64,000 bases of DNA. Source: an uncultured delta proteobacterium. Lineage in GTDB: Bacteria; Desulfobacterota; Desulfobacteria; Desulfobacterales; B30-G6. The stretch is taken from contig CAWGLD010000007.1 in NCBI GenBank assembly GCA_963823335.1, positions 345,409 to 409,408 of the forward strand, written 5' to 3'. Made by a program: the position numbers and the translations under genes. The notes beneath the pieces are model-generated. The model searched no databases, was not told the origin of the DNA, and worked only from the letters and a program-made list of their open reading frames with translations. Shown here piece by piece: positions 32,598 to 60,549 of the stretch (within the stretch, counting starts at the first letter, position 1; the number at the start of each line of letters is the position of its first letter).

Positions 32598-32654
32598 GGT
32601 CTGGCTCGTCTCCGCCTGGCTTTATAGAACCTTTCAGGGTGCAAAGGAGGTCCC

Positions 32655-34688: not shown

Positions 34689-34689
34689 A

Positions 34690-36255: not shown

Positions 36256-36341
36256 AAAGTATAGTCTTGTGTATTGATAGCCGTTAGATTATAGCGCTTT
36301 CTTTAAATCCGAATGTTCAAATGACAATAGAAGAGTGCTGA

Positions 36342-43519: not shown

Positions 43520-45637
43520 CTATCGTAACTGGAAATTGGACAGATGAAGAACCTCGCAGCATGATGACAGGCATGATATTTTTTCGATGCGCACCGGTAC
43601 GATCTTTAGATTGGGAAATCCGCCTACAGGGTCCACGTCCCGGTCATCCGTGAGACAGTTGACATTGGGTTCGTTCCAGCCATGAGGAATTTCAATAAAT
43701 CCTTTTAATATCTTGTCGCTTTCCATTACTTTTACCGGGATGGAGATCTCCCCGGTCCTGGATACGATCCGGACAATCTCACCGTCCTGGATGCCCAACG
43801 CGGCCGCATCGTCGGCATGTATTTCGGCCTGGGCACCTGGGATCGCCTTTTTGAATTTTTCGATCTCATGGAACCGTGAGTGATAGAAAATCGCTTTTCT
43901 GGTACCACTGATCATCCGTAGAGGAAACTGAGACTCAAGCGCGGTCAAATAATCGGGCGGTTTGTATATCGGATGCGCTGAACAGCCCAGCGGTTCCAGC
44001 TTGGCCGAGACGAATTCGAATTTTCCTGAAGGTGTTGGAAATGGCCGGGTTTTGAATTTTTGATGCGTGACCCTGTCATTGATGACCCGTCCCTGCGGGT
44101 TGGCTATCAAATCTTCCAGAGAGATTCCGGTCGGTTCCAGAAGCCATCGGTTGACAGCACGTTCGTCCTCCCAGGGGAAATATGTTTGCCCAAAACCGAG
44201 TCTGTGTGCCAGATCATGCCAGAAGGTATACTCATCCCACACGCCTTCCACTTTCAGGACTTTTTGTGAAAGCGCCACCCGCTGTGCATCCGCATAAAAA
44301 TGAAGTTCAGAGCGCTCTAAAAAGGAGGCCGCCGGAATGATGTAGTGGGCCAGTCTGGCACTTTCCGTCATGAAAAGATCTCTTGCCACAAGAAGATTCA
44401 GGTTTGAAAAAGCCTTGGCCACTTTATTGGCGTTGGGGTTGGTCAACACAGGATTGGTACCGGAAAAGATCAAACCCTCGATGGGATATTCCCCCTTGCC
44501 GAGCATACAATCGATGCCGGGAAGCGAATGACACTTGCGCATGACATCGTAAAATAGCGGATAGCGCGCATAGCCTGCCGGGGTCATCTCTTTGAACTGC
44601 CTGTCACTCAAGGGGTTGAGCGGGTTGACCTGTATGTCCCCGTTCCAGGGCTCACCGCCCTGGATGTCGATGGCTCCGCACAAAGCACTCAAAGAGGCAA
44701 TGGCCCGGATGGTGTTGAACCCGTTGGTCTGGTGTTCCAGGGAGATTCCCGTAAAGCTGACACACCGGGGAAGGCTTTGCAGCATCATGTCCTGCATTTG
44801 ACCGAGAATCTGTTCTGAAACACCTGTCTGCCGTGCCACGTAAGACAAGCTGAATCTTTCCGCATATGCGGCCAGTTCTTCAAACCCGAGGCTGTATGAT
44901 CTGACAAATTCCTGATCATAGGCTTTCTCATGAATGAGAAACCGGATCAGGCAAAGGGCCAGGGCCGCGTCAGTGCCGGGACGCACCTGTAAAAAGAGAT
45001 CCGCTTTTTTAGCTGCCAAAGAACGCCGGGGGTCCACCACCACCAGTTTGCCACCCTGGCGTCTGGATCGATTGATGCGTTGCATGAACGGCGGATGAGA
45101 ATAGGCAGGGTTAGTCCCCCACAAAATGATCATTGCGGCCTTTTCGAAATCAGGCGGGTAAGACCAGTATCCCTGACAGGCCTGATAGGCCATGAGACGC
45201 AGTGCAAAACAAACGGAATCCGCGGTAAAAAAATTGGGCGAGCCAAAGGCGTGGATGAAGCGCTGGGCATAAGCCTCCTGCTGAAGAAAACCTATGGCCT
45301 CGCCGGTCCAGGCGCTCATGGCACGAGCACCGGACCTATCTCTGATATCCAGCATCTTCCACGCAATTTCATCCAGCGCATCATCATAGGAGATGGCCTC
45401 AAAACCGCCCTTTGCCGTCCTCTTGAGACAGCCGCTCAAACGCTCTGAATGATATACCCATTGCGGTGCTTCGCGCCCCTTGGGACATACCATGCCCCGA
45501 TTTTCGTGATGACATTTATTGCCCGAGACCGTTGCCACCCGTCCGTCTTTAACGTGCACGTATATCCCGCAATGGTGGGCACACTGCCGACAAAGGGTGT
45601 GGATGGCACCGTTATGGATGATGGTTTTGGACTGCAT
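43520..45637 (-). CDS. Mo/W-bisPGD oxidoreductase catalytic subunit, cytoplasmic (copy 2)
   Basis: CRQCAHHC...CPKG; WTGEAIGFLQQEAYA shared with copy 1; ADSVC; IIPAASFLE. Confidence 0.9.
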   Translation of the reverse strand: MQSKTIIHNGAIHTLCRQCAHHCGIYVHVKDGRVATVSGNKCHHENRGMVCPKGREAPQWVYHSERLSGCLKRTAKGGFEAISYDDALDEIAWKMLDIRDRSGARAMSAWTGEAIGFLQQEAYAQRFIHAFGSPNFFTADSVCFALRLMAYQACQGYWSYPPDFEKAAMIILWGTNPAYSHPPFMQRINRSRRQGGKLVVVDPRRSLAAKKADLFLQVRPGTDAALALCLIRFLIHEKAYDQEFVRSYSLGFEELAAYAERFSLSYVARQTGVSEQILGQMQDMMLQSLPRCVSFTGISLEHQTNGFNTIRAIASLSALCGAIDIQGGEPWNGDIQVNPLNPLSDRQFKEMTPAGYARYPLFYDVMRKCHSLPGIDCMLGKGEYPIEGLIFSGTNPVLTNPNANKVAKAFSNLNLLVARDLFMTESARLAHYIIPAASFLERSELHFYADAQRVALSQKVLKVEGVWDEYTFWHDLAHRLGFGQTYFPWEDERAVNRWLLEPTGISLEDLIANPQGRVINDRVTHQKFKTRPFPTPSGKFEFVSAKLEPLGCSAHPIYKPPDYLTALESQFPLRMISGTRKAIFYHSRFHEIEKFKKAIPGAQAEIHADDAAALGIQDGEIVRIVSRTGEISIPVKVMESDKILKGFIEIPHGWNEPNVNCLTDDRDVDPVGGFPNLKIVPVRIEKISCLSSCCEVLHLSNFQLR

Positions 45638-45852: not shown

Positions 45853-47322
45853 TCAGACGGAAAGCTGTTCACCGGCCAGTCTGTCTGCTGCCTTATCTAC
45901 TATGGCGTCGAGTCGTTCAATGGATCCATGGGACAAGCGCTCGGGTTTATGGTTGGCCAGAATCTCCAGTGCCTTTTCAACCACCACCTCGCTGTACCGT
46001 TTTCCGCCGTTCTTTTTCCAGATTTCCGGACTCTGGCGGTTGACAAAATGCGGGGTCCAGTGTTCCTCCCTGCAATACTTGAGGGTCTGCCCATGGGCCA
46101 GGAAATTGCCCCCCGGTCCCACTTCGTGGATAACGTCCAGACCAATCCGGTTGCGGGAGATCTCAAAACCGCGCTGGATTCTGCGGACATAACTGATAAT
46201 CTCACTGCACATGACCACCGAAGCTACAGACCCCACCAGACCCTGCCCGAGATAACCCACATCGTGCACCAGATTGCAGCCATCCAGGGTCGCCATCATG
46301 ATGGAGGCCATGCATTCCAGGGCAGCCTGCTCGTCCAGAGTTCCGGCATCGCTGCAGCCAGCCTCACCCCAGACCGGAAGCCCGTAGTAATGGTAGAGAT
46401 CACAACAGGCAGAATGGGTCAGCCGCTCATCTGGACTGGCATAGACGGTGGTACCGGTACGCATATCCATGGGCGTAGCTGAAAATCCGGTAATCGCAGG
46501 GGCACCTTTGGCTCTCAGTTGCTGGATGACGAGACCGCTGAGCGCTTCGGCATTAGCCACGACAATCGCACCGGCCAGGGTGACCGGTCCACTGCCGCCT
46601 GACAGAAGGGCGGGCGAGTAGTTCAGGGGGATACCCTTGTCCGCACACATGAACAGCTTGTCCACAGCACCGCAAGAATGGACCAGGGGGCTGATAGGCT
46701 CGGCATAGTGGATGATAAATGGCTTTTCCCGCAAGCGGTCTTTACCACCCAGAACATCTGAGGCCATCTCCAGGATCACACCCAGATCATGGGAGCCTGC
46801 GGATGTAAAATAGATGGGCTTGGGCGAATTTTCCATCAGGGCCTTGAATTCCATCACAAAAGCCAGGTGTCCGGGCACGTCCAGGGGAAAAGCGTTGGAG
46901 GCGATAAAATCGATCTCTTCGCAGTAATCGCCCACAACCGCGGAATCGATGACATCCTGCAGGCACGAGGGTCTCAGCTGGCCTGTTTTAAGATCCCATG
47001 TATTGAGAAGGTCGGTTCCCATACCAAAACAGACATTGGTTCCCCCCAGTTCCATGGCGGGCTCACCCTTGCGGTTATACACGGTAACATGCGAGGGTGC
47101 CCACTGTATGCTCTCTTCCACCAACCCGGCAGGAATCTTGACGATGGTTTCATCAACGATTCTGCACCCGGCATGCTTTAAAAGCTGAAGCGCCTCTTTA
47201 TTCAGAACCTTTATCCCGGTTTTCTCCAGAAGCGCAAGGGTGGCCTGGTGGATCTCCTGGATCTGTTCTTCCGTCAACAGACGGTAGTCGGGAATACATT
47301 GTGTTTTAAAACCTGTTTGCAT
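45853..47322 (-). CDS. MttB-superfamily corrinoid methyltransferase, pyrrolysine-free (copy 2)
   Basis: Close paralog of copy 1 (FGMGTDL, IIHYAEPISPL, NLVHDVGYLGQGLVGS). Start moved to ATG 47322. Confidence 0.92.
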   Translation of the reverse strand: MQTGFKTQCIPDYRLLTEEQIQEIHQATLALLEKTGIKVLNKEALQLLKHAGCRIVDETIVKIPAGLVEESIQWAPSHVTVYNRKGEPAMELGGTNVCFGMGTDLLNTWDLKTGQLRPSCLQDVIDSAVVGDYCEEIDFIASNAFPLDVPGHLAFVMEFKALMENSPKPIYFTSAGSHDLGVILEMASDVLGGKDRLREKPFIIHYAEPISPLVHSCGAVDKLFMCADKGIPLNYSPALLSGGSGPVTLAGAIVVANAEALSGLVIQQLRAKGAPAITGFSATPMDMRTGTTVYASPDERLTHSACCDLYHYYGLPVWGEAGCSDAGTLDEQAALECMASIMMATLDGCNLVHDVGYLGQGLVGSVASVVMCSEIISYVRRIQRGFEISRNRIGLDVIHEVGPGGNFLAHGQTLKYCREEHWTPHFVNRQSPEIWKKNGGKRYSEVVVEKALEILANHKPERLSHGSIERLDAIVDKAADRLAGEQLSV

Positions 47323-47414
47323 ACCTGTTCCTATTGTGATTTGTGATTTTAGTGTTTCACTCGAATCCTCGAATCCTCGAACCCTGGAATCCTTGATCAA
47401 CTTTTTTGCGTTGA

Positions 47415-48050
47415 TCAGAAGATATTTTCTTTAATCACCGTACTGAAGTGATCGATGTGCCGCTCCATGATCTCTCTGGCATCCTTGTGTTTTCTTTTTT
47501 TAATGGCCATCAGGAGTTCCGCCAACTCCTCAAACTGTTCACGAAACTCGGCGGCCGAAAATCCAACCTGGAACCAGTACATGGACATCTTGTAAAGGAG
47601 TGATTCGATCATTTCCTTGAGCTGTCTGTTTCCCGAAGCATCATATAAAATCCCATGGAACTCCATGTCGATATCCGACATTTTTTTTAGATCATCCATG
47701 GTGTTGGTTTTTACCTGGGCGGTCAATTCGAGCAGGTGCTGCAGTCTCTGAAACTGATCGGGTTCCATATTCAGCGCGGCCAGCTCTGCAGCCAGACCTT
47801 CCAGTTCCCGGCGCAACTGGATTGTATCGCGTAATGTCCGCATATCCAGGCTGATTACACGCGTTCCCAGTTTGGGTATAATCTCGATGAGACCGTTTCG
47901 CTGAAGTTCCTGAAAGATTTCCCGCAGGGGTGTCCTGCCGATCTGATATTCATGCATCAACACCTTTTCATACAGCTGTTGACCGGCATGAAATTCATTG
48001 GTTATAATCCGGTATCGCAAGTTCTCATATATTTTCTTTTTCGGAGACAT
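47415..48050 (-). CDS. GntR/FadR-family regulator (wHTH + FCD)
   Basis: IGRTPLRE HTH; DMEFHGILYDASGN; MERHI. Confidence 0.9.
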   Translation of the reverse strand: MSPKKKIYENLRYRIITNEFHAGQQLYEKVLMHEYQIGRTPLREIFQELQRNGLIEIIPKLGTRVISLDMRTLRDTIQLRRELEGLAAELAALNMEPDQFQRLQHLLELTAQVKTNTMDDLKKMSDIDMEFHGILYDASGNRQLKEMIESLLYKMSMYWFQVGFSAAEFREQFEELAELLMAIKKRKHKDAREIMERHIDHFSTVIKENIF

Positions 48051-48484: not shown

Positions 48485-49048
48485 ATGCAAGAAAACATCA
48501 ATGCCTTTTTACGTGTCCTGGATGCCACCGACAATTCCACCGGCGGCGGGACCGCCTCGAGCATTGCGGGCGCCATGGCCGCTGGACTGGCAGCCATGGT
48601 GGCGCGCCTATCCATGGACAAAAAAAACCTTGCACCCACACAGACCTATCAATCCATAGCAGCAGAAGCGGAAATACTTTCTGCAGAACTTTTTAATGGC
48701 GGTCAAGAGGATGCCGCCGCCTTTGACCGGGTCACCAGGACCTATAAGATGCCAAAGGATACCACAGCCGCCAAAGACGCGCGGACCCAGGCCGTTCAAG
48801 AGGCCATGCAGCACGCGGCAGAAGTACCCCTCTCAAACGCTGCACGATGTAAGCGGGTTCTGGAAATCTGCCAGCGTCTGGGAAAAAGCTACAACACCAA
48901 TGCGGCCTCTGATCTCGAATGTGCCCTCCACCTGGCAACAGCCGGCCTGAAAGGATGTGCCGCCAATGTCAGAATCAATCTGCCCTATATAAAAGATGAG
49001 AGCATTCGCAAAGATATCGAGGAAAAATTGGAAGCGATTCTGCAGTAA
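48485..49048 (+). CDS. Formiminotetrahydrofolate cyclodeaminase (FTCD C-terminal family)
   Basis: GGGTASSIAGAMAAGL, DAAAFD, NAASD, NVRINL. Confidence 0.9.
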   Translation: MQENINAFLRVLDATDNSTGGGTASSIAGAMAAGLAAMVARLSMDKKNLAPTQTYQSIAAEAEILSAELFNGGQEDAAAFDRVTRTYKMPKDTTAAKDARTQAVQEAMQHAAEVPLSNAARCKRVLEICQRLGKSYNTNAASDLECALHLATAGLKGCAANVRINLPYIKDESIRKDIEEKLEAILQ

Positions 49049-49138: not shown

Positions 49139-50044
49139 ATGAAAGCTTTAATGTGTGTCCCCAACATCAGTGAGGGTACCGATCTGTCTGTCGTGGAAAA
49201 AGTGGTGGACTCCGTTCGGTCTGCTCCCGGCGTCATGCTCCTCGACTACTCATCCAACCCAGACCATAACCGATCCGTAATTACCTATATCGGCCGTCCC
49301 GAACCCGTGGCGCTCGCCACAAGGAAACTGGCCGAAACCGCTCTGGAACTCATCGACATGACCTGCCACAAAGGGTCACACCCCCGCCAGGGTGCCGTGG
49401 ATGTGGTTCCCTTTATCCCCATCCGGGGAATCACCGAGGAAGCGTCTATCTCCATTGCAAAGGACTTTGGCCGATACGTTGGAAACACCTTGGGTGTTCC
49501 GGTCTATTTTTATGAGGATGCAGCCACGCGACCCGAACGACAGAATCTTGCCAAAGTCAGGAAAGGCCAATACGAAGCCCTGGCCCAGAAGCTTGAAGAT
49601 CCGGCCTGGGTACCTGATGAAGGTCCCTGTCAGTTCATACCCAGAAGCGGATCCATGCAGGTATCCTCCCGCTTTCCCCTGGTGGCGTTCAATGTCAACC
49701 TCGCCACCACCGATCTTGACATTGCCCAGAACATTGCCGAAAGCGTCCGTTTTATCAATGGTGGTTTCAGGAATGTTCGAGCCATCGGGCTCTCCCTGAA
49801 AGAGGCAGGTATGGTTCAGGTATCCATGAACCTGACCCACTATGAAAAAACACCCATTCCCATGGTTGCAGAGGCGGTAAAGCGTGAAGCCGCGCGTTAT
49901 GGGGTCAGCGTGGTGGGCACGGAACTGGTGGGGCCGGTACCTTTGGGCGCCATGGGGCAGATCTTTCGCTACTATCTCCAGGCGCATGATTTCCGCGTGG
50001 ACCAGATCATCGAAAATTCACTGATCGGGTGGACAGGCGAATAA
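49139..50044 (+). CDS. ftcD: Glutamate formiminotransferase
   Basis: CVPNISEG, DHNRSV, HPRQGAVDVVPF, VQVSMNL, ELVG. Confidence 0.93.
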   Translation: MKALMCVPNISEGTDLSVVEKVVDSVRSAPGVMLLDYSSNPDHNRSVITYIGRPEPVALATRKLAETALELIDMTCHKGSHPRQGAVDVVPFIPIRGITEEASISIAKDFGRYVGNTLGVPVYFYEDAATRPERQNLAKVRKGQYEALAQKLEDPAWVPDEGPCQFIPRSGSMQVSSRFPLVAFNVNLATTDLDIAQNIAESVRFINGGFRNVRAIGLSLKEAGMVQVSMNLTHYEKTPIPMVAEAVKREAARYGVSVVGTELVGPVPLGAMGQIFRYYLQAHDFRVDQIIENSLIGWTGE

Positions 50045-50170: not shown

Positions 50171-51430
50171 ATGCAAAAACCCAAAGCAGATCTGTTAATC
50201 GACAATACCACCGAGCTCATCACCTGTATTCCAACGGGAAGCGATCCCCTGGGAAGAATTCAAAACGGTGCCGTTGCCGTGGCGGGTGGGCGGATACTCG
50301 CAACAGGCTCACGGGCTGATCTGGAGCAGCGCCTGGATCTGACCGGGACCCAAGTCCTGGACACCCAGGGAAAGATTGTAGCGCCCGGCTTTGTGGATTG
50401 CCACACCCATCTGATATTCGGTGGATCACGGGTTAAGGAGTATGCCCTCAAGATGACCAGGAGTCTTGCTGAAATAGAGGCCATGGGGCTGAAAACCGGT
50501 ATTCCCGCCTCCATTGCCATGACCAGGGAAGCCAGTGAGGAGGATCTCTTTCTCGGTGCGCTGGATCGCCTGGGGCGGATGCTCCACTACGGAACCACCA
50601 CCGTTGAAAGCAAGAGTGGTTACGGCATCAGCTGGCCCGCCGAGCTTAAGATGCTGCGGGTCAATCAACGACTCGCCCAGGCCCAGCCGGTTGATGTGGT
50701 ATCCACGTTTCTCGGGGCGCACGATTTTCCGCCGGAAATGGACCGTGAAGATCCAAATCAGCGTAAGGCCTATATTCGTGAACTGACCCAGGAGATGATC
50801 CCCCGGGTGGCACAAGACAACCTGGCAGCATTCTGCGACATCTACTGTGATGTGGGTTACTACACGGCCGGAGAATCGGAAATCGTGCTCAGGGCAGGCA
50901 TGGACCATGGCCTGGCACCCAGGATTCACACCGATGCTTATGCCAACATCGGCGGCAGCACACTGGCGGCAACACTTCCGGCGGTATCTGCCGATCATCT
51001 CAACTATACGTCTGAAAACGAAATGCGTCGTTTGGCACAAAACAATGTGGTGGGTGTGGTGTTGCCGGCCCTAGACTTCGCCGTGGCCCATCCAGACCCG
51101 TTTGATGCACGGCCCATGCTGAAAGCCGGCATGACCCTGGCACTGGGTACCAATTTAAACCCCGGCAACTGGACCGAATCCATGCAGCTCGTCATGCAGC
51201 TGGCTTGCAGAAACCACGGGATGGCTCCGGAAGAAGCCATGCTGGCGGCTACCACCGGCGCAGCGCGTGCCATCCAGCGCCACCATCAGATCGGATGCCT
51301 TGCCGAGGGATATGCGGCTGATATTCAGATTTGGGATCTGCCTTGTTTTGAAGATGTCATTTACAGAATCGGCAACAACGCTGTCTGGATGGTCATCAAG
51401 AACGGTAAGATCATTGTGAGGAACAGATGA
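50171..51430 (+). CDS. hutI: Imidazolonepropionase-like amidohydrolase, divergent
   Basis: PGFVDCHTH, GTTTVESKSGYG, TFLGAH and SADHL are conserved; HTDA and TNLNPG are atypical. Confidence 0.85.
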   Translation: MQKPKADLLIDNTTELITCIPTGSDPLGRIQNGAVAVAGGRILATGSRADLEQRLDLTGTQVLDTQGKIVAPGFVDCHTHLIFGGSRVKEYALKMTRSLAEIEAMGLKTGIPASIAMTREASEEDLFLGALDRLGRMLHYGTTTVESKSGYGISWPAELKMLRVNQRLAQAQPVDVVSTFLGAHDFPPEMDREDPNQRKAYIRELTQEMIPRVAQDNLAAFCDIYCDVGYYTAGESEIVLRAGMDHGLAPRIHTDAYANIGGSTLAATLPAVSADHLNYTSENEMRRLAQNNVVGVVLPALDFAVAHPDPFDARPMLKAGMTLALGTNLNPGNWTESMQLVMQLACRNHGMAPEEAMLAATTGAARAIQRHHQIGCLAEGYAADIQIWDLPCFEDVIYRIGNNAVWMVIKNGKIIVRNR

Positions 51431-52995
51431 GAATAACAGAAATTGAAATTTCAGGGAAAGCGCTGACCATCGAGGAGGTCAATGCGGTAGCCAACAACAG
51501 GGCAACGGTAAAGCCTCTCAGCCCGGAGACAAGATCCCGCATGAACGCCACATACCAGTGGTTGAATCAGGCTATTCAAAAGCGGGATACCGTGTTTTAC
51601 GGTATCAACACCGGCTTCGGGTCCCATGCCAACGAGACCATTCATCCGGACCAGGCCGGTATCCTGTCCAGAAATGTCATTCTTGCGGATGTAGCCGGTA
51701 TCGGCAAGCCTTTGCCCGAACCCATCGTCCGGGCCATGATGGTTATCCGGGCCAACACCATGGCCGGAGGACCATCCGGTATCCGGCCGGTGGTGGTTGA
51801 AACCCTTGTGAATATGCTCAACAAGGGGGTTATCCCTTTTGTCCCGGAAAAGGGCTCCCTGGGGGCCAGTGGTGATCTGGTGCCCCTGGCCACCATTGCG
51901 TCTGTTGCAACCTGCGATGCCGACGGTGGAGGATACAGCGGCAAGGCCTGGTACAGGGGTGAATTGATGAGTGGTGAAGAGGCCATGCGTCAGGCCGGCA
52001 TCCCCAGGCTCAAACTGGTGGCCAAGGAAGGAAATTCCATGATCAACGGCACAGCTTTCATGGCTGCCGTGGGTTGCCTGGCTGTTGAAAGATGCGAAAA
52101 ACTGATTCGCCATTCTGAAATCGCCGCAGCCATGAGTCTCGAAGCCCTGCTGGCAGTGTCGTCTGCCTTTCACCCGTCTCTGCACCAGGCTGCAAACCAG
52201 AAAGGGCAGATATCCGTGGCCAAAAACTTGAGAAGTCTGATCAAGGGCAGTCGGCTGGTGGATTCCACGGACAAGGTTCAGGATGCCTACTGTCTGCGGT
52301 GTATCCCTCAGGTATTGGGACCGGTCAAAGACACGGTCGCATTTGCCCGGGGCTACATTGAAAGGACATTGAACGCCGGAATCGACAACCCGCTGATCCT
52401 TGATTCCAATGAGGACGAGCCTTATGTCTGCATATCCGGCGGAAACTTTCACGGGGAAGGCCTGGCATTCATAATGGATTTTTTGTCCATCGTGATGTCC
52501 GAAGTGGCCAATATTTCCGATAGACGTTCATTCGCCCTGCTCACACCCGCCCTGAATTTCGGACTGCCCTCCATGTTGATACCTGCAAACGGTCTCAACA
52601 CCGGGTTAATGGTTGCGCAATATGCCGCCGCTGCGCTGGTATCGGACAACAAGACCCTTGCCCATCCGGACAGCGTCGATTCCATTCCCACCAGCGCAAA
52701 TCAGGAGGATCATGTGAGCATGGGGGCCAACGGGGCCCGTCATCTATGGGAGATCCTTGAAAATGTTACCAACGTTATCGCCATCGAATTTCTCTGTGCG
52801 GCCCAGGCTGTGGATCTACGGGAAGAAGGCCCCAAGCGTCTGGGAGAGGGGTCCCACATCGCCCATACTGTGATCCGACAACATGTGGACTTCTATGACA
52901 AGGACAAGGAGATGTCGCCGGATATCGCCCGGCTGGCGCAGTTGATCAAGGAAGAGGAGCTGCTGGAGAAAATTGATGGCAGCGAGAAATCCTAA
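51427..52995 (+). CDS. Aromatic amino-acid ammonia-lyase (HutH paralog) with altered specificity residues
   Basis: YGINTGFG, MIO triad ASG, QDAYCLRC, GGNFHG, NQEDHVSMG. The HAL SH motif is replaced by AD. Confidence 0.9.
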   Translation: MRITEIEISGKALTIEEVNAVANNRATVKPLSPETRSRMNATYQWLNQAIQKRDTVFYGINTGFGSHANETIHPDQAGILSRNVILADVAGIGKPLPEPIVRAMMVIRANTMAGGPSGIRPVVVETLVNMLNKGVIPFVPEKGSLGASGDLVPLATIASVATCDADGGGYSGKAWYRGELMSGEEAMRQAGIPRLKLVAKEGNSMINGTAFMAAVGCLAVERCEKLIRHSEIAAAMSLEALLAVSSAFHPSLHQAANQKGQISVAKNLRSLIKGSRLVDSTDKVQDAYCLRCIPQVLGPVKDTVAFARGYIERTLNAGIDNPLILDSNEDEPYVCISGGNFHGEGLAFIMDFLSIVMSEVANISDRRSFALLTPALNFGLPSMLIPANGLNTGLMVAQYAAAALVSDNKTLAHPDSVDSIPTSANQEDHVSMGANGARHLWEILENVTNVIAIEFLCAAQAVDLREEGPKRLGEGSHIAHTVIRQHVDFYDKDKEMSPDIARLAQLIKEEELLEKIDGSEKS

Positions 52996-53345
52996 ATCCT
53001 AATATCGAAATACGAAACAAACTCAAATTTCAAATGTTCAAATTATCAAGACATAGCAATTTGGCTCGGATGGCTTCACTTGTTTCGGTCATTGGGATTT
53101 ATATCATTTGGTATTGTTTAGGATTTCTTATTTCATGCTTCGAATTTAGTTGGGCTTCGATATCTGCAAAGTTCACAGACACTAACATGAACGTCCAACA
53201 TCGAACGTCCAACATCGAATTTTGAATGGGTAGAAAGGAAGAAATAGAAATTAGCTCATAGGGCTTGATCAGGTAACAGCTATCACCTATCAGCTATTAG
53301 TGTGTTTTCATTCGACGTTGGACTAGTTCGATGTTCGATGTTCAT
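52994..53345. repeat. Family C (52994-53148) and family B (53187-53345) inverted-repeat elements inside the operon
   Basis: Two stacked long hairpin-forming elements between the hutH-like and hutU-like genes. Confidence 0.75.
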
Positions 53346-53441
53346 CTTTTTAAAATTTTAAATACCTCCGAAGGCTTGGGGTTCAAGGATCCAAAATATT
53401 ATACCTTTAATGTGCATACAATAATGAAGGAGGCTCAGACT

Positions 53442-55175
53442 ATGAAACCGGAAATCTTATATGAAGTGAAAGCCCAGCGCGGGGATACCCTGCGCTGCAA
53501 AGGGTGGAAACAGGAAACCCTTTTGAGAATGCTGGAAAACAATATGGAAAACGCCGAAGCACCGGAATACCTCGTAATCTACGGGGGTATCGGCAAGTGT
53601 GCCAGAAACTGGGAATCCTACCACGCCATCGTGGATTCTCTCAAAAATATGGAAAATGACGAAACCCTGGTGGTACAGTCGGGCATGCCCGTTGCCATAT
53701 TCAAAACCCACAAGCTGGCACCCCGGGTGGTCATGGCAACCACGAACATCATGAAAGCAACCTGGCCCACATTCTACGATCTTCAGGATAAAAATCTCAC
53801 CATGTTTGCACAGTATACGGCAGCACCCTGGGAATATATCGGAACTCAGGGGGTTATCCAGGGCACGTTCGAGACCCTGGGCGCCATCGCAGACCAGCAC
53901 TTCAACAGTTCTTTGGTGGGGAAAATTCTCCTGACCGCCGGCCACGGCGGCATGGGGGCCAATCAGCCCCGGGCCATGAACATGCACGGCGGTGTGTGTA
54001 TCGACGTGGATGTCAACGAAGCCACCATCGACAAACGCATCAAGATCGGGTTCACCGATGTCAAGGCGGAAAGTCTGGATGCAGCCTTTGACATGGCCAA
54101 ACAGGCCGCCGCAGAGAAAAAGGCCCTTGCCATCGGTGTCGTTGGGAATGCCGCCACCCTGTTCTGGGAAGCCTATGACAAGGGCTTTAAACCCGACATC
54201 GTCACTGAAATGTGTCCCTGTCACGATCCCCTCTCATACATACCCGAAGGATATTCCCCGGCGGAAGCCGAAGACCTCAGGGTTGCAGACCGCGATGGCT
54301 ATCTTGAAAAAGCGCGTCAGTCCATGGTCAAACAGTTGAGAGCCATGAATGCTTATTCCAAAAAAGAGGGCATCCAGGTATTTGAATATGGCACCTCCAT
54401 TCGCAAGGAGTGCCGTGATGCCGGTATGCCTGAAGAAGAGGCCATGACCATACCGGGCTTTGTGGCGGAGTATATCCGGCCCCTTTTCTGTGAAGGCCGG
54501 GGCCCATTCCGCTGGACCTGCATCTCCGGAGATGAGGGCGATCTTAAACGCCTGGACGACCTGGTGCTGGACATGTTTCCGGAAGACAAACTGACCGTCA
54601 AATGGATCAACCTGGCCCGCAAAACACTGCCCATCGAGGCACTCCCTGCCCGGGTGTGCTACCTGGGTTTCGGGGAAAGAAAGGCCTTCGCCCTCAAAGT
54701 CAACGCGCTCATCAAAAAGGGTGAGGTGAAAGGCCCGGTTGCTTTTTCACGGGATAACCTGGACTCCGGCTCCATCGTGAACCCCACCTTTGAATCGGAG
54801 AAAATGAAGGACGGCGGGGACCTGATATCCGACTGGCCCATGCTCAATGCGCTTTTAAACTGCGCGGCCATGTGTGACCTCATCGCCATTCAGGCCAACT
54901 ACTCCATGGGGGAAGCTGTCCATACCGGTGTGACCATGATCGCCGATGGCAGCGATGAAGCTGATTTCCGTCTGGATGCATGCATGACCACCGACTCCGG
55001 TATCGGTGTGGTACGGCATGCCCAGGCAGGCTATGAAACAGCCCGGGAAACCGCAGAAGGGCGTGGAAAGCTGACAAGTGAAAGCATAAAAGTGCCTCTC
55101 TGGTGGAGTCCTGTGGCAACCTTCGGACCCGAAGGCGGCCGGCAGTTGCGACGAAGTGCGCATACGAAAGAATAA
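53442..55175 (+). CDS. Urocanate hydratase paralog, divergent subfamily
   Basis: LVIYGGIGKCARNW, YIGTQGVIQGT, GPFRW, LPARVC, GIGVVRHAQAGY, with several active-site motifs altered. Start moved to ATG 53442 after AAGGAGG. Confidence 0.9.
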   Translation: MKPEILYEVKAQRGDTLRCKGWKQETLLRMLENNMENAEAPEYLVIYGGIGKCARNWESYHAIVDSLKNMENDETLVVQSGMPVAIFKTHKLAPRVVMATTNIMKATWPTFYDLQDKNLTMFAQYTAAPWEYIGTQGVIQGTFETLGAIADQHFNSSLVGKILLTAGHGGMGANQPRAMNMHGGVCIDVDVNEATIDKRIKIGFTDVKAESLDAAFDMAKQAAAEKKALAIGVVGNAATLFWEAYDKGFKPDIVTEMCPCHDPLSYIPEGYSPAEAEDLRVADRDGYLEKARQSMVKQLRAMNAYSKKEGIQVFEYGTSIRKECRDAGMPEEEAMTIPGFVAEYIRPLFCEGRGPFRWTCISGDEGDLKRLDDLVLDMFPEDKLTVKWINLARKTLPIEALPARVCYLGFGERKAFALKVNALIKKGEVKGPVAFSRDNLDSGSIVNPTFESEKMKDGGDLISDWPMLNALLNCAAMCDLIAIQANYSMGEAVHTGVTMIADGSDEADFRLDACMTTDSGIGVVRHAQAGYETARETAEGRGKLTSESIKVPLWWSPVATFGPEGGRQLRRSAHTKE

Positions 55176-55338: not shown

Positions 55339-55363
55339 AAACTTGAATGTAAGGAGATTCAAA

Positions 55364-56821
55364 ATGCCCCACAACCCACGTCTTCGATTCCTCACCGAAA
55401 ACGAAGAAGGTCTGATTTTTGAAAAGTGCCTCTATATTCTTTCGAATAAGGGTGTGAAAATAGACTATCCAAAGGCACTGGCCCTGCTGAAAAAAGCAGG
55501 TGCCGATGTCAATGAGAAGACCGAACAGGTTTGTTTCAGCCGCAATATGATCGAAACAGCCCTGAAAACAGTACCCCGTGAATTCACGGTCAAAGGCAGC
55601 CAAGCGAAACACGATTTTGTGGTCCCCCATCCCGAGGGATCCTTTTATACCAGCACCTGTGTTCAGACCATGCAGTATCACGACCCGGATATCAACGGGT
55701 TCGTGGCTGTCACCAGGCAAAACCTGGCCGAGTGGACGCAGCTCGCTGACGGGCTGGACAACATCCACAAAATCGCCATGCAGACACCCACAGATGCTCC
55801 CCATGAAACAGCCGATGTACATTCTCTGAGCATTCATCTGCAGAATACAACCAAACCCTTGATGGTGCTTGCATACTGCCCGGAAACCGTTCCGTTTCTA
55901 TTTGAACTGATGCTTGCCAGGGCTGGCAGCGTCGAAGCGTTGCAGGAAAGACCGATGCTCCTCACCTACCCTACCTCTTTGTCGCCGCTGCAATTCAAAG
56001 CCATGGATATGGAAACCATCCTTCAGTCATGCCGGTACGGCGTCCCCGTAGTGGCGAACTCTCTGGCCATATCAGGGGCCACAGCACCGGTAACCGTGGC
56101 CGGAACCGTTCTACTGGCCAGTGTCGAGATTCTGGCCATGCTGGTGATGACTCAGATTTTTCAGCCTGGATTGCCGGTAATCGGTTCTGTTTACACCACC
56201 AGTATGGACATGGCCACCGGCAACGCGCTGCTGGGAAATGCGGAGAGCATGCTGGGTCGGGCGGCATCGTCCCAGTTCATCAAGAGCAGATTCCACATCC
56301 CTGTTGAAACGTTTTCCTTCATGACCGATTCTTTTCTGTCGGATGGGCAGGCCATGGTTGAAAAATCCTTAATGCCGGCTCTTCTGGATCTGGCAGGGAG
56401 TGACATTCAATACGGCGCCGGAAGACTGGGCGGTGCAACGGCAGCCAGTCCGATTCAGTTGATCATCGATGATCAGTTGTTCACCATCATCCAGAAATGC
56501 AACAGCGGCGTGGTGGTAAACGATGACACCCTGGCGTTGCAGGATATTCTGGAAAATGCACCCCAGGGTAATTTTATTACCAGCGGGCACACTCTGCGAT
56601 ATTGCAGGGAAAACATCCGCCCCAGCCTGTTCGTCGCCGATAATTTGGACAACTGGCAATCAAAAGGTGCCAAAAGTCTTTACGAACGCGCCGTGGAAAG
56701 GTATAAGGAACTTCGATCGCAACTGTCCCCGCCATCTTTACCCGATGAGATTCTGCGGGATATGAGCAGCGTCGTAAAAAAAGCCGATGACCATCTGGTG
56801 GGAAAACTGGGATCCAAGTAA
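55364..56821 (+). CDS. MttB-superfamily corrinoid methyltransferase, pyrrolysine-free (copy 3, divergent)
   Basis: SPLQF, SGATAPVTVAG, MDMATG, TDSFLSDGQAMVEK, GNFITSGHTL. Start moved to ATG 55364. Confidence 0.9.
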   Translation: MPHNPRLRFLTENEEGLIFEKCLYILSNKGVKIDYPKALALLKKAGADVNEKTEQVCFSRNMIETALKTVPREFTVKGSQAKHDFVVPHPEGSFYTSTCVQTMQYHDPDINGFVAVTRQNLAEWTQLADGLDNIHKIAMQTPTDAPHETADVHSLSIHLQNTTKPLMVLAYCPETVPFLFELMLARAGSVEALQERPMLLTYPTSLSPLQFKAMDMETILQSCRYGVPVVANSLAISGATAPVTVAGTVLLASVEILAMLVMTQIFQPGLPVIGSVYTTSMDMATGNALLGNAESMLGRAASSQFIKSRFHIPVETFSFMTDSFLSDGQAMVEKSLMPALLDLAGSDIQYGAGRLGGATAASPIQLIIDDQLFTIIQKCNSGVVVNDDTLALQDILENAPQGNFITSGHTLRYCRENIRPSLFVADNLDNWQSKGAKSLYERAVERYKELRSQLSPPSLPDEILRDMSSVVKKADDHLVGKLGSK

Positions 56822-56825
56822 GCTT

Positions 56826-57626
56826 ATGATACATTCAATCTATCGATTTGTTAAACGGATGCACCTTTTTGATATATCGGCATACCTGTTTCTTATGATC
56901 GGTGGGGGCATCCTCCTTTTAAAAGGCGCTGAAGACCAGGGATATTACTGGCAGTGGTTTCGGATTCCCAAATATCTATATGAAATCGATGACGGCCGAT
57001 TTATTGCCGGGCCCATTTTAAAGGGGCTCAAGATAACCCTGAACCTCACCTGGATCAGTCTTATTCTGACCTACATCATCGGGCTGGTCACCGCCCTGAT
57101 GCGGCTTTCCAACTCGCTGCTGGCAAGAGGTATTGCCCGGGTCTATCTTGAGATTACACGCAATACGCCCTTACTGGTGCAGATATTTTTCATGTACTTC
57201 GTTGTGGCGCCGATTCTGGACATCGACCGGTTTGTTGCGGGTGTGCTGGCACTGAGCCTTTTTGAAGGGTCCTATGCGTCGGAAATTTACCGCTCCGGCA
57301 TCGTCGCCGTCAACAAGGGACAATGGGAAGCCTCCTACACCCTGGGTCTGAGCACCTACCAGAACTATCGCTATATCGTTCTGCCCCAGGCCATACGGCG
57401 GATACTTCCGCCCTTGACCAGCCAGGCCGTTTCCCTGATCAAGGACTCATCCCTGGTCAGCGTTATCGCCATATACGAGATGACCATGCACGCCAATGAA
57501 ATCGCCTCGGAAACTTTTCTGGTTTTTGAGATATTCTTTACCATCGCCGCGATTTATCTGGCACTGACCATCACCTTGTCACAGATCGTGGCTTATTTTG
57601 AAAAGCGATACAGGGTAATATCTTGA
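56826..57626 (+). CDS. Polar amino-acid ABC transporter permease
   Basis: RNTPLLVQ, GQWEAS, PQAIRRILPPL, LIKDSSL. Confidence 0.95.
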   Translation: MIHSIYRFVKRMHLFDISAYLFLMIGGGILLLKGAEDQGYYWQWFRIPKYLYEIDDGRFIAGPILKGLKITLNLTWISLILTYIIGLVTALMRLSNSLLARGIARVYLEITRNTPLLVQIFFMYFVVAPILDIDRFVAGVLALSLFEGSYASEIYRSGIVAVNKGQWEASYTLGLSTYQNYRYIVLPQAIRRILPPLTSQAVSLIKDSSLVSVIAIYEMTMHANEIASETFLVFEIFFTIAAIYLALTITLSQIVAYFEKRYRVIS

Positions 57627-57685
57627 CACCCCAAGCATTTAGGCTGATAGGCTGTTAGACTGTAGGCTGTAGGAGAGGAACACAC

Positions 57686-58438
57686 ATGAGTGCCAAAGAG
57701 TTTGGTGATTACATTGTCCGCGTTGACGGTATTGGCAAGACCTTTTCCAACGGAGTCGTGGCGCTAAAGGATTTTTCCACGAACATTCGCCGCAGAGAAG
57801 TGGTGGTTCTCATAGGGCCGTCAGGATCCGGAAAATCGACTTTTTTACGCTGTCTGAACGGACTGGAGGAGATCGATTCCGGCACCATCACCATCGACGG
57901 CATTCCCCTTGACGACAACAAGAAGAACCGTCTGGAAATCCGCAAGGAAGTGGGTATGGTGTTCCAGCATTTCAATTTATTCCCACACCTGACGGTTTTT
58001 AGAAACATTACTCTGGCGCAGATGCTCGTGCGCAAAAAATCCAAGAATGACGCCCAGGATGAAGCCATGCAGCTGCTGAAAAAAGTGGGCATTTCAGAAA
58101 AAGCGGACGCATTCCCGAGCCAACTCAGCGGCGGACAGCAGCAGCGCGTGGCCATCGCCAGAGCGCTGGCAATGAAACCCAAGGTGATGATGTTCGATGA
58201 AGCCACCAGTGCTCTTGACCCGGAAATGATCGGTGAGGTATTGGAAGTGATGAAGGCGCTTGCCATAGAGGGCATGACCATGGTCGTCGTTACCCACGAA
58301 ATGGGATTTGCCCGGGAGGTGAGCGACTGGGTTATTTTTATGGAGGACGGTATGAAGGTGGAAGAAGGAACGGCAGAACACTTTTTTACCGATCCCAAAA
58401 AAGATCGTACCAAGCTGTTTCTGAGTCAGATACTATAA
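57686..58438 (+). CDS. Polar amino-acid ABC transporter ATP-binding protein (GlnQ-like)
   Basis: [28 protein letters not shown]. Confidence 0.95.
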
Positions 58439-58473
58439 AATTTGGATCATCTTCAAAAGAGATGATCCAAATT
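58439..58473. repeat. Perfect 14-bp inverted repeat related to the MITE ends at 8532/8854
   Basis: AATTTGGATCATCT-7nt-AGATGATCCAAATT. Confidence 0.7.
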
Positions 58474-58699
58474 GAGGGTTCACGGGGCGGAGGGTGATAC
58501 AAGGGTCCGAGGGTAGCTGACAGCAATAAGCGGACAGCAGCATCACAGCTTCCTATCATCCTAGCGTCCCAGCATATCAGGGGTCAAGGGTTGCTGAAAG
58601 CAATCAGCAATAAGCAACTAACAGCCTATAGTCTATACCCCTAAAAGGCTAAACAACTGTTGTTTCAATTCACCAACCTTAGAAAAGGAGACCAAGACA

Positions 58700-59548
58700 A
58701 TGAAGAAAATGATCGTGGGAAAAAAAAGAGTCTTAACGATGGTCACGGCAGTCATGCTGGCACTGATGTTCTGCATTGCAGGGACGGTTGTCGCCGATGA
58801 CATCAACCAGGAACTTGCCAAATCCAGCATCATCGACAAGGTCATGCGCAAAGGCACACTGCGGGTGGGTCTCTCTTCATTTGTGCCCTGGGCAATGCAG
58901 GATAAAAAAGGTGAGTGGGTTGGTTTTGAGATCGATGTCGCCAAACAACTGGCCGAGGATATGGGTGTCAAAATTGAATTTGTGCCCACCAAGTGGGAAG
59001 GCCTCATCCCCTCGCTCCTGACTGGTAAGTTCGACATGATTATCGCCGGCATGACCGGAACACCCCAGCGGGCCCTGAAAATCAACTTCACCAATCCTTA
59101 TGACTATTCGGGTATGAATGTCGTGGTCCACAAAGATTTTTCAGCAGGTGTCAGCGACTATATGGATCTGGACAAGAAGGGCAACACCATTGTAGCACGT
59201 CTAGGCACCACCGGCGCCGCATTAGCCAAGGAAACATATAAAAATGCCACGGTCCGCCTGTTTCCCGACGAAGGCCCCATGGTGCAGGAGCTTCTGAACG
59301 GCAAAGCCGCCGCATTTTTGGGTTCGGCACCTCAGCCGGCCCAGCTGGCTGCCAAGTATCCAGATACCCTGGTGTTCCTGGACAAGAACCTGGTCCAGCA
59401 GCCCATCTGTATGGGTGTCCCCAAAGGCGACCCGGATACCCTGGCCTATCTGAACAACTGGATCACGACGGTCCGCAACAATGGCTTCATCCAAAAGAAA
59501 GTCGATTACTGGTGGAAGAGCCTCGAATGGGAGTCCTTACTGCAGTAA
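58700..59548 (+). CDS. Polar amino-acid ABC transporter substrate-binding protein (family 3)
   Basis: Signal peptide, GFEIDVAKQLA, WEGLIPSLLTGKFD, FTNPY. Confidence 0.95.
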   Translation: MKKMIVGKKRVLTMVTAVMLALMFCIAGTVVADDINQELAKSSIIDKVMRKGTLRVGLSSFVPWAMQDKKGEWVGFEIDVAKQLAEDMGVKIEFVPTKWEGLIPSLLTGKFDMIIAGMTGTPQRALKINFTNPYDYSGMNVVVHKDFSAGVSDYMDLDKKGNTIVARLGTTGAALAKETYKNATVRLFPDEGPMVQELLNGKAAAFLGSAPQPAQLAAKYPDTLVFLDKNLVQQPICMGVPKGDPDTLAYLNNWITTVRNNGFIQKKVDYWWKSLEWESLLQ

Positions 59549-59664
59549 CGTCGCTCATAATGCCAGTCATTTGGTTGTCACAGAAACGAGTCAACATCGA
59601 ATCCCGCAGCTGCGGGATTCGATGTTGAGCGTTCATTATTGAAATATCGCAGAGTGAAGCTGGT

Positions 59665-60549
59665 ATGTACAAAAGAAATCTCCGCTTGAAAACATCTGAT
59701 GTCATTGCCGGCGCCATTCTCTTGGCCGTCGCCGTGGCCATCTATTACCGGGTGGAAATCGGGCTCAATTACAAATGGAACTGGGATAAAATCCCCCAGT
59801 TCCTGTACCGCTTTGACGATGAGAGTGGCAAGTGGGTATCCAACGTGTTGATGTGGGGCCTTTTCAACACCATCCGCCTCAGTATCTTCGGCACCATCCT
59901 GGCCATCGTCCTGGGTACGATCATGGGTATCTGCCGGTCTTCAAAGGTGGTGTTCCTCAGGCTCGTCAGCGGCACCTATGTTGAAACCATGCGCAACCTC
60001 CCGCCCCTTGTAATCATCTTTATCGTCTATTTTTTCATCGGAAACCATCTGTTGCCCTACAGCGGCATCGGGGCCGCTCTGGAAGGCCGGGACAACTTCC
60101 TGGTAACCCTCGTGACTTTCTGCTTTTCTCGGCCGGAGCACCTCACCACGTTCCTGTCCGCGCTCTTCACCCTGGCGATCTTCGAAGGCGCCTATATCAC
60201 CGAAATTGTCAGGGCCGGGATCCAGTCCATTCACAGGGGCCAGTGGGAAGCCGCCCACTCCCTGGGAATGACAAAATACCAGATGATGCGTTACATCATT
60301 CTGCCTCAGGCCTTTCAGCGAATATTACCACCAATGGCCGGGCAGTTTGTTTCCCTGATCAAGGATTCCTCCATCGTTTCGGTCATTTCCATACCCGAAC
60401 TCTCCTTCAGGGCCAATGAGCTCATGACCGGCACGCTCCTCACCATGGAGATCTGGATTACGGTAACGATACTATACCTGATGCTGACGCTGCCCTGCTC
60501 GATCGCTATCCAGAAACTGGAGGATCGTGTCTCCAGGGGATTGCGCTAA
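59665..60549 (+). CDS. Polar amino-acid ABC transporter permease
   Basis: RNLPPLV, AYITEIVRAGIQS, GQWEAA, LIKDSS. Confidence 0.95.
   Translation: MYKRNLRLKTSDVIAGAILLAVAVAIYYRVEIGLNYKWNWDKIPQFLYRFDDESGKWVSNVLMWGLFNTIRLSIFGTILAIVLGTIMGICRSSKVVFLRLVSGTYVETMRNLPPLVIIFIVYFFIGNHLLPYSGIGAALEGRDNFLVTLVTFCFSRPEHLTTFLSALFTLAIFEGAYITEIVRAGIQSIHRGQWEAAHSLGMTKYQMMRYIILPQAFQRILPPMAGQFVSLIKDSSIVSVISIPELSFRANELMTGTLLTMEIWITVTILYLMLTLPCSIAIQKLEDRVSRGLR

Follow-up and report, generated by a model that had tools for sequence, protein, structure and literature searches.

Beliaeva, Atac and Seebeck are said to have reported in ACS Chem Biol in 2022 how Bacillus terra degrades N-tele-methyl-L-histidine, the 3-methylhistidine of the biochemical literature. 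A lyase, a urocanase-like hydratase and an imidazolonepropionase-like enzyme reportedly form a series parallel to hut; the route is said to be aerobic and to release N-methylformamide. Our literature searches on methylurocanate and on methylhistidine/N-methylformamide returned no open description of the Bacillus terra enzymes. Also within the Bacillaceae, the cluster of Psychrobacillus comprises an AD-type lyase (P0274), two genes of the hydratase type called HutU2 below, HutI, an M20 hydrolase and an amino-acid ABC transporter, and the [AS]D motif is found in 120/120 of the closest listed Bacillaceae relatives of this lyase.

The canonical histidine ammonia-lyases (HALs) are represented by HutH of P. 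putida (1B8F/1GKM) and the enzyme of T. acidophilum (7TQR). According to 10.1101/2025.08.13.670108, position 83 of HAL contacts the N-tele atom of the imidazole and Glu414 contacts N-pi. PMC11432326 gives His at this site as needed in two studied HALs: Geobacillus HAL is inactivated by H82L, and kcat of P. putida HAL active-site mutants falls 1,000- to 20,930-fold. Other members of the superfamily are tuned to modified histidines, namely ergothionase and the histidine-betaine trimethylammonia-lyases (6S7J of T. denticola; SO_3057, SO_3299 and Swoo_3913 of Shewanella), which act on trimethylammonium substrates and are without the Ala-Ser-Gly triad.

Here we analyse a lyase, HutH2, that is encoded in a window of 64,000 nucleotides from an uncultured, sulfate-reducer-like relative of the Desulfobacterales. 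Table 1 lists the features of its gene cluster.

Table 1. Features of the HutH2 gene cluster and their positions in the window.
Feature	Position	Strand	Remarks
Molybdopterin oxidoreductase, adjoins the cluster, possible member	43520..45637	-	homologue in 5/11 D-clade loci
MttB_b, non-pyrrolysine MttB-superfamily methyltransferase	45853..47400	-	TIGR02369 397 bits (cut-off 525)
GntR/FCD regulator, divergent	47415..48050	-	in 9/11 D-clade loci
FTCD_C-type cyclodeaminase/cyclohydrolase-like	48485..49048	+	PF04961 170 bits; NCBIfam FchA below cut-off
Glutamate formimidoyltransferase	49139..50044	+	TIGR02024 398 bits
HutI2, imidazolonepropionase homologue	50171..51430	+	TIGR01224 373 bits
HutH2 (P0001, 522 aa)	51427..52995	+	MIO-type lyase; predicted N-tele-methylhistidine ammonia-lyase
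HutH2-HutU2 spacer, 446 bp	52996..53441		14-nt tandem repeat and inverted repeats
HutU2, re-tooled urocanase homologue, 'N(tele)-methylurocanate hydratase' type	53442..55175	+	GGAGG upstream of start 53442
MttB_c, second MttB-superfamily methyltransferase	55343..56821	+	directly downstream of HutU2
Polar-amino-acid-type ABC transporter: permease, ATPase, SBP_bac_3 binding protein, permease	56787..60549	+	profile matches

Sequence and active site of HutH2

The ATG of HutH2 overlaps the stop codon of HutI2 (ATGA), with GAGGA upstream. The protein matches the Pfam profile PF00221 over its full length (554.7 bits, profile positions 1-465 of 466), and phmmer comparisons with canonical HALs gave E-values from 1e-91 to 1e-99. 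On the NCBIfam hutH equivalog TIGR01225 it scored 546.8 bits, marginally over the cut-off of 539.15; the score of HutH1, the other lyase compared in the window (true start at 34690), was 668.2. The AF2 model has a pLDDT of 96.4. Foldseek confirmed the HAL/TAM fold for HutH2, with a TM of 0.88 and 37% identity to 1b8f, so that HutH2 has the same fold as the canonical enzymes.

An earlier sequence-only reading had listed the changes from HutH1 to HutH2 as IIMSHASG to VILADVAG, FGALC to FGSHA and FHGQP to FHGEG. All of them are present in the translations, where NTGFGSHA, NVILADVAG, GSLGASGDL and GGNFHGEG of HutH2 correspond to TTGFGALC, IIMSHASG, GSVGSSGDL and GGNFHGQP of HutH1. The same reading held that the ASG triad and the catalytic Tyr loop are retained, and the intact GSLGASGDL and YGINTGFG bear this out; the MIO-forming triad is Ser-Ser-Gly in HutH1 and Ala-Ser-Gly in HutH2, and MIO formation in the latter is predicted. 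In the alignment HutH2 also keeps Y53, N195, Q277, Y280, R283, F329 and E414 (P. putida numbering), together with the residues that bind the carboxylate and the Glu that contacts N-pi. With MIO and the catalytic residues in place, the substrate would be expected to have a primary amine. HutH2 is related to ergothionase and the trimethylammonia-lyases (194.6 bits to 6s7j) but, unlike them, has the ASG triad.

HutH2 differs from canonical HAL at other sites. It has Asp88 (at the His83 site, the N-tele ligand of canonical HAL), His67 after TGFG, Asn203, Thr314, Gly345 and Met383, and of these His67 and Asn203 are new in its clade. In terms of the canonical enzyme, His83 has become Asp, the Glu306 equivalent Thr, Pro333 Gly and Phe370 Met; the MIO helix is followed by an insertion. 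Glu occupies the Thr314 site in 128/128 aligned sequences with both Ser-His at 82-83 and an x-Ser-Gly triad; because His83 was used to select this group, the finding of His in 128/128 is uninformative.

Phylogeny of the lyases

After 12 of 272 sequences with lengths outside 440-700 aa were removed, the alignment contained 260 homologues of HutH2. Asp occupies the His83 position in 71 of them, and in 69 of these it is accompanied by the His two residues after TGFG. The 71 sequences form a single clade with a support of 0.975 (the D clade), and therefore the combination of Asp88 and His67 is not a matter of chance. No HutH2 orthologue was found in a 400-genome sample of the phylum, in which the top match was 46% identical. 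Pattern scans of genomes and metagenomes were swamped by the universal NQEDHVSM and gave two D-clade loci only; the remaining loci came from further genome searches.

The sister clade of the D clade has Cys at position 83. Its lyase lies beside a canonical urocanase in five loci and is the only PF00221 gene in four of the five genomes checked, so loss of His83 alone does not exclude histidine as the substrate, and we rejected this loss by itself as proof of a new one. We likewise rejected Asp83 as a feature unique to the D clade; it is found in other lyase lineages too, where it recurs independently without His67. In a tree of 226 lyases, the non-His83 enzymes fall into five clades that are separate from one another, and HutU2-type neighbours occur in every one. 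The tree has 189 His83 tips, not one of which is beside a HutU2-type gene; 86 adjoin a canonical urocanase and 103 have no urocanase in reach. As read from this tree, the pattern shows that the same putative ligand swap at position 83 arose several times. The worry that AD variants might be common among proven HALs is not borne out: AD and SD lyases are common, for example in Fusobacterium and Clostridia copies, and none of them is a proven HAL; each one with a visible urocanase neighbour lies next to the HutU2 type.

The urocanase partner

HutU2 shares 444/565 residues (79%) with P0356, a protein whose UniRef name is N(tele)-methylurocanate hydratase (source annotation). The fetched loci contain 96 urocanase homologues, of which a group of 21, HutU2 among them, forms a clade with a support of 1.0 and a stem length of 1.03. 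Identity to HutU2 is 66-100% within this clade and at most 49% for the other 75 urocanases, and the clade carries substitutions at sites that are invariant in those 75. The two groups also differ in their lyases. Position 83 of the nearest lyase is D in 14, C in 3, N in 3 and not visible in 1 of the HutU2-type cases, and H in 69, C in 4, S in 1 and none in 1 of the others. The partner of HutH2 is therefore not a canonical urocanase but a member of this separate clade. In relatives, the lyase-urocanase spacer measures 56-420 bp.

The top NCBIfam match of HutU2 is S-methyl thiourocanate hydratase NF058531 (648.7 bits, cut-off 880), followed by hutU with 629.9 bits; thiourocanate hydratase NF058530 gave 606.4 bits against a cut-off of 930. 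Like HutU2, these hydratases are urocanase homologues re-tooled around the ring, but HutU2 is far below both curated cut-offs and carries substitutions of its own. As in 7ned, there is no Arg in HutU2 at the R455-equivalent position.

These observations bear on the alternative that HutH2 is an ordinary HAL isozyme, in which His67 (Cys in the sister clade) replaces His83, within a folate-dependent hut operon. Its retained MIO and catalytic residues and its score above the hutH cut-off agree with this, and the marginal pass of that cut-off counts against a methylhistidine substrate. The strict covariation of His67 and Asp88 could represent a relocated ligand, but Asp83 also recurs without His67, always with a HutU2-type urocanase where the neighbour is visible. 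The Cys-83 sister enzymes serve as sole lyases in full hut operons with canonical urocanase; the D-clade lyase, however, was never the sole lyase of its genome, and a canonical lyase (652-668 bits) is also kept in 11/11 genomes checked, this one and 10 others. Finally, the only FTCD_N gene found in the genome is the formimidoyltransferase of the HutH2 cluster, and plain histidine may therefore be degraded through this cluster as well. Against the isozyme explanation, the partner HutU2 is altered at otherwise invariant sites and closely resembles the hydratase named for N(tele)-methylurocanate. On balance we regard the isozyme explanation as unlikely.

Conservation of the gene cluster

The gene order of the cluster is conserved across 11 loci, down to 72% lyase identity. 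MttB_b is present in 8/11 D-clade loci and MttB_c in 10/11, the contig end cutting the 11th. The ABC transporter is conserved in loci L204, L205, L209 and L211, and a similar one occurs in the Psychrobacillus cluster. The other partners also follow the lyase: a 26-tip HutI clade contains HutI2 and all 17 HutU2-linked HutI, and the formimidoyltransferase of HutU2-type loci clusters apart as well. The HutI and formimidoyltransferase next to non-His83 lyases thus belong to separate lineages confined to such loci, though to a lesser degree than the urocanase.

The MttB genes flanking the cluster raise a second alternative, namely that it degrades hercynine or another N-alpha-methylated histidine, with MttB demethylating the quaternary amine and HutH2 eliminating methylamine or dimethylamine. 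The characterised non-pyrrolysine members MtgB, MtpB, MtcB and MtyB use quaternary amines as substrates, and MttB also adjoins HutU2-type loci in Anaerolineae (L003) and Thermoleophilia (L026), but in Fusobacterium, Acidaminobacter and Psychrobacillus lyase/urocanase pairs of this kind are found with no MttB. Moreover, the residue changes of HutH2 are at the distal ring side and not the amine side, an unmodified ring would need no re-tooling of the urocanase, and the transporter binding protein is of the polar-amino-acid type rather than the betaine type. A literature search on MttB and histidine derivatives found nothing relevant and no link of MttB to hercynine. We consider this explanation quite improbable.

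Proposed substrate and pathway

The sequence-only reading had proposed an MIO lyase for a ring-modified histidine, N-methyl or thio, rather than for His or a betaine. The ring-modified substrate is favoured by the residues, the separate partner lineages and the close match of HutU2, with the gene context as the decisive evidence; of the two options, N-methyl (tele) fits, and thio is disfavoured because the formimidoyltransferase and cyclodeaminase kept in the operon need an unsubstituted C2. It is indeed very unlikely that the substrate is a sulfur histidine with a free amine (2-thiohistidine, 5-thiohistidine/ovothiol A or the S-methyl form) and HutU2 a thiourocanate-type hydratase: the best-scoring profile, the missing Arg, the molybdopterin enzymes nearby and the marine-sediment-like setting would agree with it, but the score is far under the model cut-off, the conserved folate enzymes need a sulfur-free formimino carbon, and the UniRef name of P0356 indicates N-methyl.

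We therefore lean towards N-tele-methyl-L-histidine as the predicted substrate of HutH2, or else a histidine with a very similar N-tele substituent, rather than L-histidine. Asp88, being shorter and anionic, would make room for the N-methyl group and pair with the cationic N-methylimidazolium ring. The product N-tele-methylurocanate would then be hydrated by HutU2, and HutI2 would open the ring to give N-(N'-methylformimidoyl)-glutamate. In the last step, formimidoyltransferase and cyclodeaminase would pass the C1 unit to tetrahydrofolate and release methylamine. MttB_b and MttB_c probably capture or take off a methyl group, either within the route or ahead of it. Two further points count against the methylhistidine substrate: it is not evident that an Asp suits a neighbouring methyl group, and an N-methylhistidine route has no requirement for MttB enzymes. 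It is conceivable, but doubtful, that in these anaerobes the MttB enzymes demethylate an intermediate of methylhistidine breakdown, either an N-methyl-amidinium or an N-methyl-imidazolium. N-methylformimidoyl-glutamate is one candidate substrate; the other is a histidinium methylated twice on the ring, which would yield N-tele-methylhistidine.

When compared with the Bacillus terra pathway, the HutH2 cluster has the same parallel series of lyase, hydratase and imidazolonepropionase. HutH2 combines Asp88 with the MIO triad, as presumed for the Bacillus terra enzyme, whose own Asp motif is an assumption on our part, and it is encoded a short distance upstream of a hydratase of the UniRef N(tele)-methylurocanate type. 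The replacement of His83 by Asp is shared with the Bacillaceae lyases that lie beside a HutU2-type hydratase. On the other hand, there is no common descent: HutH2 belongs to the clade of D and C sequences, whereas the Psychrobacillus AD lyase branches among canonical-type sequences, and on this phylogenetic evidence the resemblance is convergent. HutH2 also adds His67, Asn203, Thr314, Gly345, Met383 and the loop insertion, the predicted last step is a formimidoyltransferase with a cyclodeaminase and not a hydrolase, the locus has two MttB methyltransferases and the GntR/FCD regulator as conserved components, and the host is an anaerobe-type relative of the Desulfobacterales. Judging by the UniRef name and the pathway reported in 2022, HutH2 is probably a convergent lineage of the Bacillus terra N-tele-methylhistidine lyase class.

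Significance

Databases label HutH2 and the 120 closest listed relatives of the Psychrobacillus AD lyase 'histidine ammonia-lyase' (one is labelled 'aromatic amino acid lyase'). A two-part signature, a non-His residue at position 83 and an adjacent HutU2-type urocanase, would split the methylhistidine route from true hut operons. It would extend the pathway of 2022 from a soil Bacillus to anaerobes, including Desulfobacterales, Fusobacterium, Clostridia, Anaerolineae and Thermoleophilia. The folate-dependent ending of the anaerobic route should release methylamine, and the conserved MttB genes point to a putative link between methylhistidine and corrinoid methyl transfer. If MttB demethylation of methylhistidine intermediates is true, the MttB superfamily would gain a new class of substrate, and sulfate reducers could pass both the methyl group of methylhistidine and its formimino carbon to tetrahydrofolate.

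Sequence and active site of HutH2

HutH2 (P0001) matches the Pfam profile PF00221 over its full length with 554.7 bits, and its AlphaFold model (pLDDT 96.4) superimposes on HAL and tyrosine aminomutase structures with TM values of 0.87-0.90. Its translation contains the motifs NTGFGSHA, NVILADVAG, GSLGASGDL and GGNFHGEG, and that of HutH1, the first lyase in the window (start 34690), contains TTGFGALC, IIMSHASG, GSVGSSGDL (a Ser-Ser-Gly triad) and GGNFHGQP, so all the substitutions between the two lyases that were listed in the sequence-only reading are real. It was also found from the alignment that Tyr53, Asn195, Gln277, Tyr280, Arg283, Phe329 and Glu414 (P. putida numbering) are retained in HutH2. 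The start codon overlaps the stop of the upstream imidazolonepropionase gene in ATGA, with GAGGA 5' of HutH2. The hutH equivalog cut-off is exceeded by a margin of 7.7 bits, which counts against N-methylhistidine as the substrate.

A Shewanella woodyi preprint (10.1101/2025.08.13.670108) describes binding of the imidazole N-tele by the His83 equivalent and of N-pi by the Glu414 equivalent. According to PMC11432326, H82L abolishes the activity of Geobacillus HAL and kcat drops 1,000- to 20,930-fold in P. putida HAL active-site mutants. By its sequence, HutH2 is an intact MIO lyase in which the N-tele ligand has been exchanged for Asp (Asp88). A Shewanella oneidensis preprint confirms that Ala-Ser-Gly is absent from ergothionase-type lyases; HutH2 retains it, and therefore a primary-amine substrate is expected.

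Gene neighbourhood

The cluster consists, in order, of a GntR/FCD regulator (reverse), FTCD_C, a formimidoyltransferase, HutI2 (imidazolonepropionase homologue), HutH2, HutU2 (urocanase homologue), MttB_c (an MttB-superfamily methyltransferase) and a polar-amino-acid ABC transporter. Upstream, the opposite strand encodes a second MttB homologue and a molybdopterin oxidoreductase. The genome search gave three lyase/urocanase sets, namely the HutH2 cluster, HutU1-HutH1 at a distance of 17 kb from it, and a set on contig 8. The module around HutU1-HutH1 contains methyl-transfer genes (MtaA-like, MetH-activation-like, a non-Pyl MtmB homologue, a corrinoid protein and a RACo activase) together with a HutC-type regulator, a ferredoxin and a molybdopterin oxidoreductase. 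HutU1 is a long, divergent urocanase that scores just 434.9 bits with the hutU model. The contig 8 set comprises a urocanase, an ABC transporter, an M20 peptidase, an SH-type lyase, HutI, an amidase and an MttB homologue. The sole FTCD_N gene detected in the genome is in the HutH2 cluster, which also counts against the N-methyl reading. The gap between HutH2 and HutU2 is 56-128 bp in more distant relatives.

Coordinates of HutH2 and of other features in the window and in fetched loci
Feature	Coordinates	Strand	Remarks
HutH2 (P0001)	51427-52995	+	ORF, 522 residues
HutH2-HutU2 spacer	52996-53441		446 bp
14-nt tandem repeat	53189-53216		in spacer
Inverted arms	53184-53206 vs 53326-53348		in spacer
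Methyltransferase-linked hut module	27150-40896		with HutU1-HutH1
MtmB homologue	29140-30522		no in-frame stop
Cytoplasmic-type molybdopterin oxidoreductases, two	36830-38890; 43520-45637		best NCBIfam matches far under cut-offs
IS200-type Y1 transposase domain + DnaA C-terminal helix-turn-helix domain, one ORF	60616-61590		just past ABC transporter
Third hut-like cluster, L215 (G000 contig 8)	3000-22900
Adjoining MTTB fragments, L215	308-901; 898-1509		different frames; resemble a frameshifted copy
Two HutU2-type genes, Acidaminobacter (L021)	3180-6904		one cluster
Two HutU2-type genes, Psychrobacillus (L250)	8055-13643		one cluster

Phylogeny and distribution

The homologue alignment was composed of 260 sequences, 12 of 272 having been removed for length. 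Asp occupies the His83 position in 71 of them, with His two residues past TGFG (His67 in HutH2) in 69. In the tree these 71 sequences form a single clade (D clade, support 0.975), and the sister C clade (n=50, support 0.987) has Cys, once Ser, at position 83 and Leu after TGFG; both unite with a support of 1.0. Relative to 128 canonical sequences, D-clade members have Asn203 for Leu191, Gly345 for Pro333, Met383 for Phe370, Thr314 for a Glu found in 128/128, and an insertion at 163-170. His67 and Asn203 occur in the D clade only and are missing from the other Asp83 lineages; they look like lineage-specific fitting rather than the core determinant.

Sampling 400 genomes of the phylum gave no HutH2 orthologue, the top match having 46% identity. 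Among 400 genomes sampled from the order, a D-type gene is present in 12 (73-92% identity); it is partial in one of them and contains an in-frame TGA in another, and one more genome gave a 59% match of the C type. At L201/L208 (G470:C115), a D-clade lyase has one in-frame TGA inside the match.

Synteny was evaluated in 11 D-clade loci (L001 and L204-L213). HutI2 and the formimidoyltransferase lie upstream of the lyase in 10, the eleventh being cut by the contig end; downstream, MttB_c is found in 10 (the eleventh cut) and HutU2 in nine. The GntR regulator is present in nine loci and MttB_b, another MttB-superfamily methyltransferase, in eight, while a molybdopterin enzyme adjoins the cluster in five. 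In two loci HutU2 does not adjoin the lyase: one of these genomes has a copy with 88% identity at another place, and in the other, which is 61% complete, no HutU2 was found. The operon is conserved, and the special hydratase is co-inherited with HutH2. All 10 other D-clade genomes tested have exactly one extra PF00221 gene (652-668 bits), frequently on the contig of the D-type gene at a distance of 18-32 kb, and therefore the D-type lyase is always additional to a canonical one. None of the five C-type genomes checked has a second full PF00221 gene; one also has a 50-residue fragment.

Association with a distinct urocanase type

Asp83 is not exclusive to the D clade, since it was found in other lineages. 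The Fusobacterium watanabei lyase reads NLIYSDACGVG, and SD or AD occurs in otherwise canonical backgrounds in Acidaminobacter, an Oscillospiraceae MAG and two further loci. These SD/AD lyases lie in complete operons (HutU, transporter, HutI, FTCD_C, lyase, formimidoyltransferase), and in genomes G830, G795 and G794 they are second copies alongside SH lyases. SN variants were found in Actinomycetota and Rhodospirillaceae, and SC variants in Thermoleophilia. The Acidaminobacter genome G794 (L224, L225) has five PF00221 paralogues, two of which have no Ala-Ser-Gly triad and are candidate trimethylammonia-lyases.

We then typed 96 urocanase homologues with at least 450 aligned residues from the fetched lyase loci. 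The identity to HutU2 is 66-100% for 21 of them and at most 49% for the other 75, and the 21 form one clade with a support of 1.0 and a stem of 1.03 substitutions per site. Position 83 of the nearest lyase is D in 14, C in three, N in three and not visible in one of the 21, versus H in 69, C in four, S in one and none in one of the 75. In the tree of 226 lyases, with two genes entered twice (L223 = L021, L218 = L054), five separate non-His83 clades each have HutU2-type neighbours; such a neighbour was found beside none of the 189 His83 tips. At sites invariant among the other 75, the HutU2 type changes, for example, GRDH to SRDN, TDQ to TEM and GGMGGAQP to GGMGANQP, and an invariant Arg becomes Phe (NPTFE); in PDB alignments, 7ned has Ile in place of this Arg, and it is at this residue that 8q9u and 8q9v differ.

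The other pathway enzymes of HutU2-type loci likewise group separately. All 17 HutU2-linked HutI copies fall inside a 26-tip clade (support 1.0) that takes in 3 of 54 canonical-linked copies, and all 13 HutU2-linked formimidoyltransferases fall inside a 19-tip clade with no canonical-linked member (weak support, 0.55). The substrate modification therefore seems to be kept along the entire route. Those members of the C clade that neighbour a canonical urocanase are probably genuine histidine lyases; His83 would therefore be dispensable in the D+C subfamily, and this counts against the N-methyl reading.

The HutU2-type loci with adjoining MttB homologues come from three phyla and are those of the D clade (10/11 loci), Anaerolineae (L003, where an MtaA-like gene is also present and a C-type lyase accompanies the HutU2-type urocanase) and Thermoleophilia (L026). 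None was found in the Fusobacterium, Clostridia and Bacillaceae HutU2-type clusters examined. The three copies in the window score 327, 397 and 428 bits (NCBIfam), all below the pyrrolysine-enzyme cut-off of 525.

Proposed link to N-tele-methylhistidine degradation

Beliaeva, Atac and Seebeck reportedly found in 2022 that N-tele-methylhistidine is turned into glutamate and N-methylformamide by soil bacteria, Bacillus terra among them, with enzymes said to be homologous to the first three of the hut pathway. When five Bacillales genomes were searched, two HutU2-type genes (71% identity) came from Psychrobacillus sp. L4, where they are clustered with a lyase (LLRADAVGVG and ASG), an M20 hydrolase, HutI, an SBP_bac_3 ABC transporter and a sigma-54 activator. 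The 120 closest relatives of this lyase, named histidine ammonia-lyase or aromatic amino acid lyase at source, all have [AS]D (AD 117, SD 3). UniRef gives the name N(tele)-methylurocanate hydratase, by annotation only, to P0356 from Crassaminicella thermophila, a relative of the Psychrobacillus urocanase; HutU2 is 79% identical to P0356.

The sequence-only reading proposed an MIO lyase for a ring-modified histidine, N-methyl or thio. Its N-methyl form is supported by the HutU2-type partner and the identity to P0356, while the thio form is disfavoured because the cluster has folate enzymes. For the N-methyl form, Asp88 would leave space for the methyl group and pair with the cationic ring, and the loss of the Arg and His in HutU2 would prevent repulsion of an intermediate that is permanently N-methylated. 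HutI2 would then yield N-methylformimidoyl-glutamate, from which the transferase and cyclodeaminase would produce methenyl-THF and methylamine. The proposed enzyme class is already known; HutH2 would be a convergent lineage of it, within a version of the pathway that belongs to anaerobes and is linked to folate enzymes and MttB.
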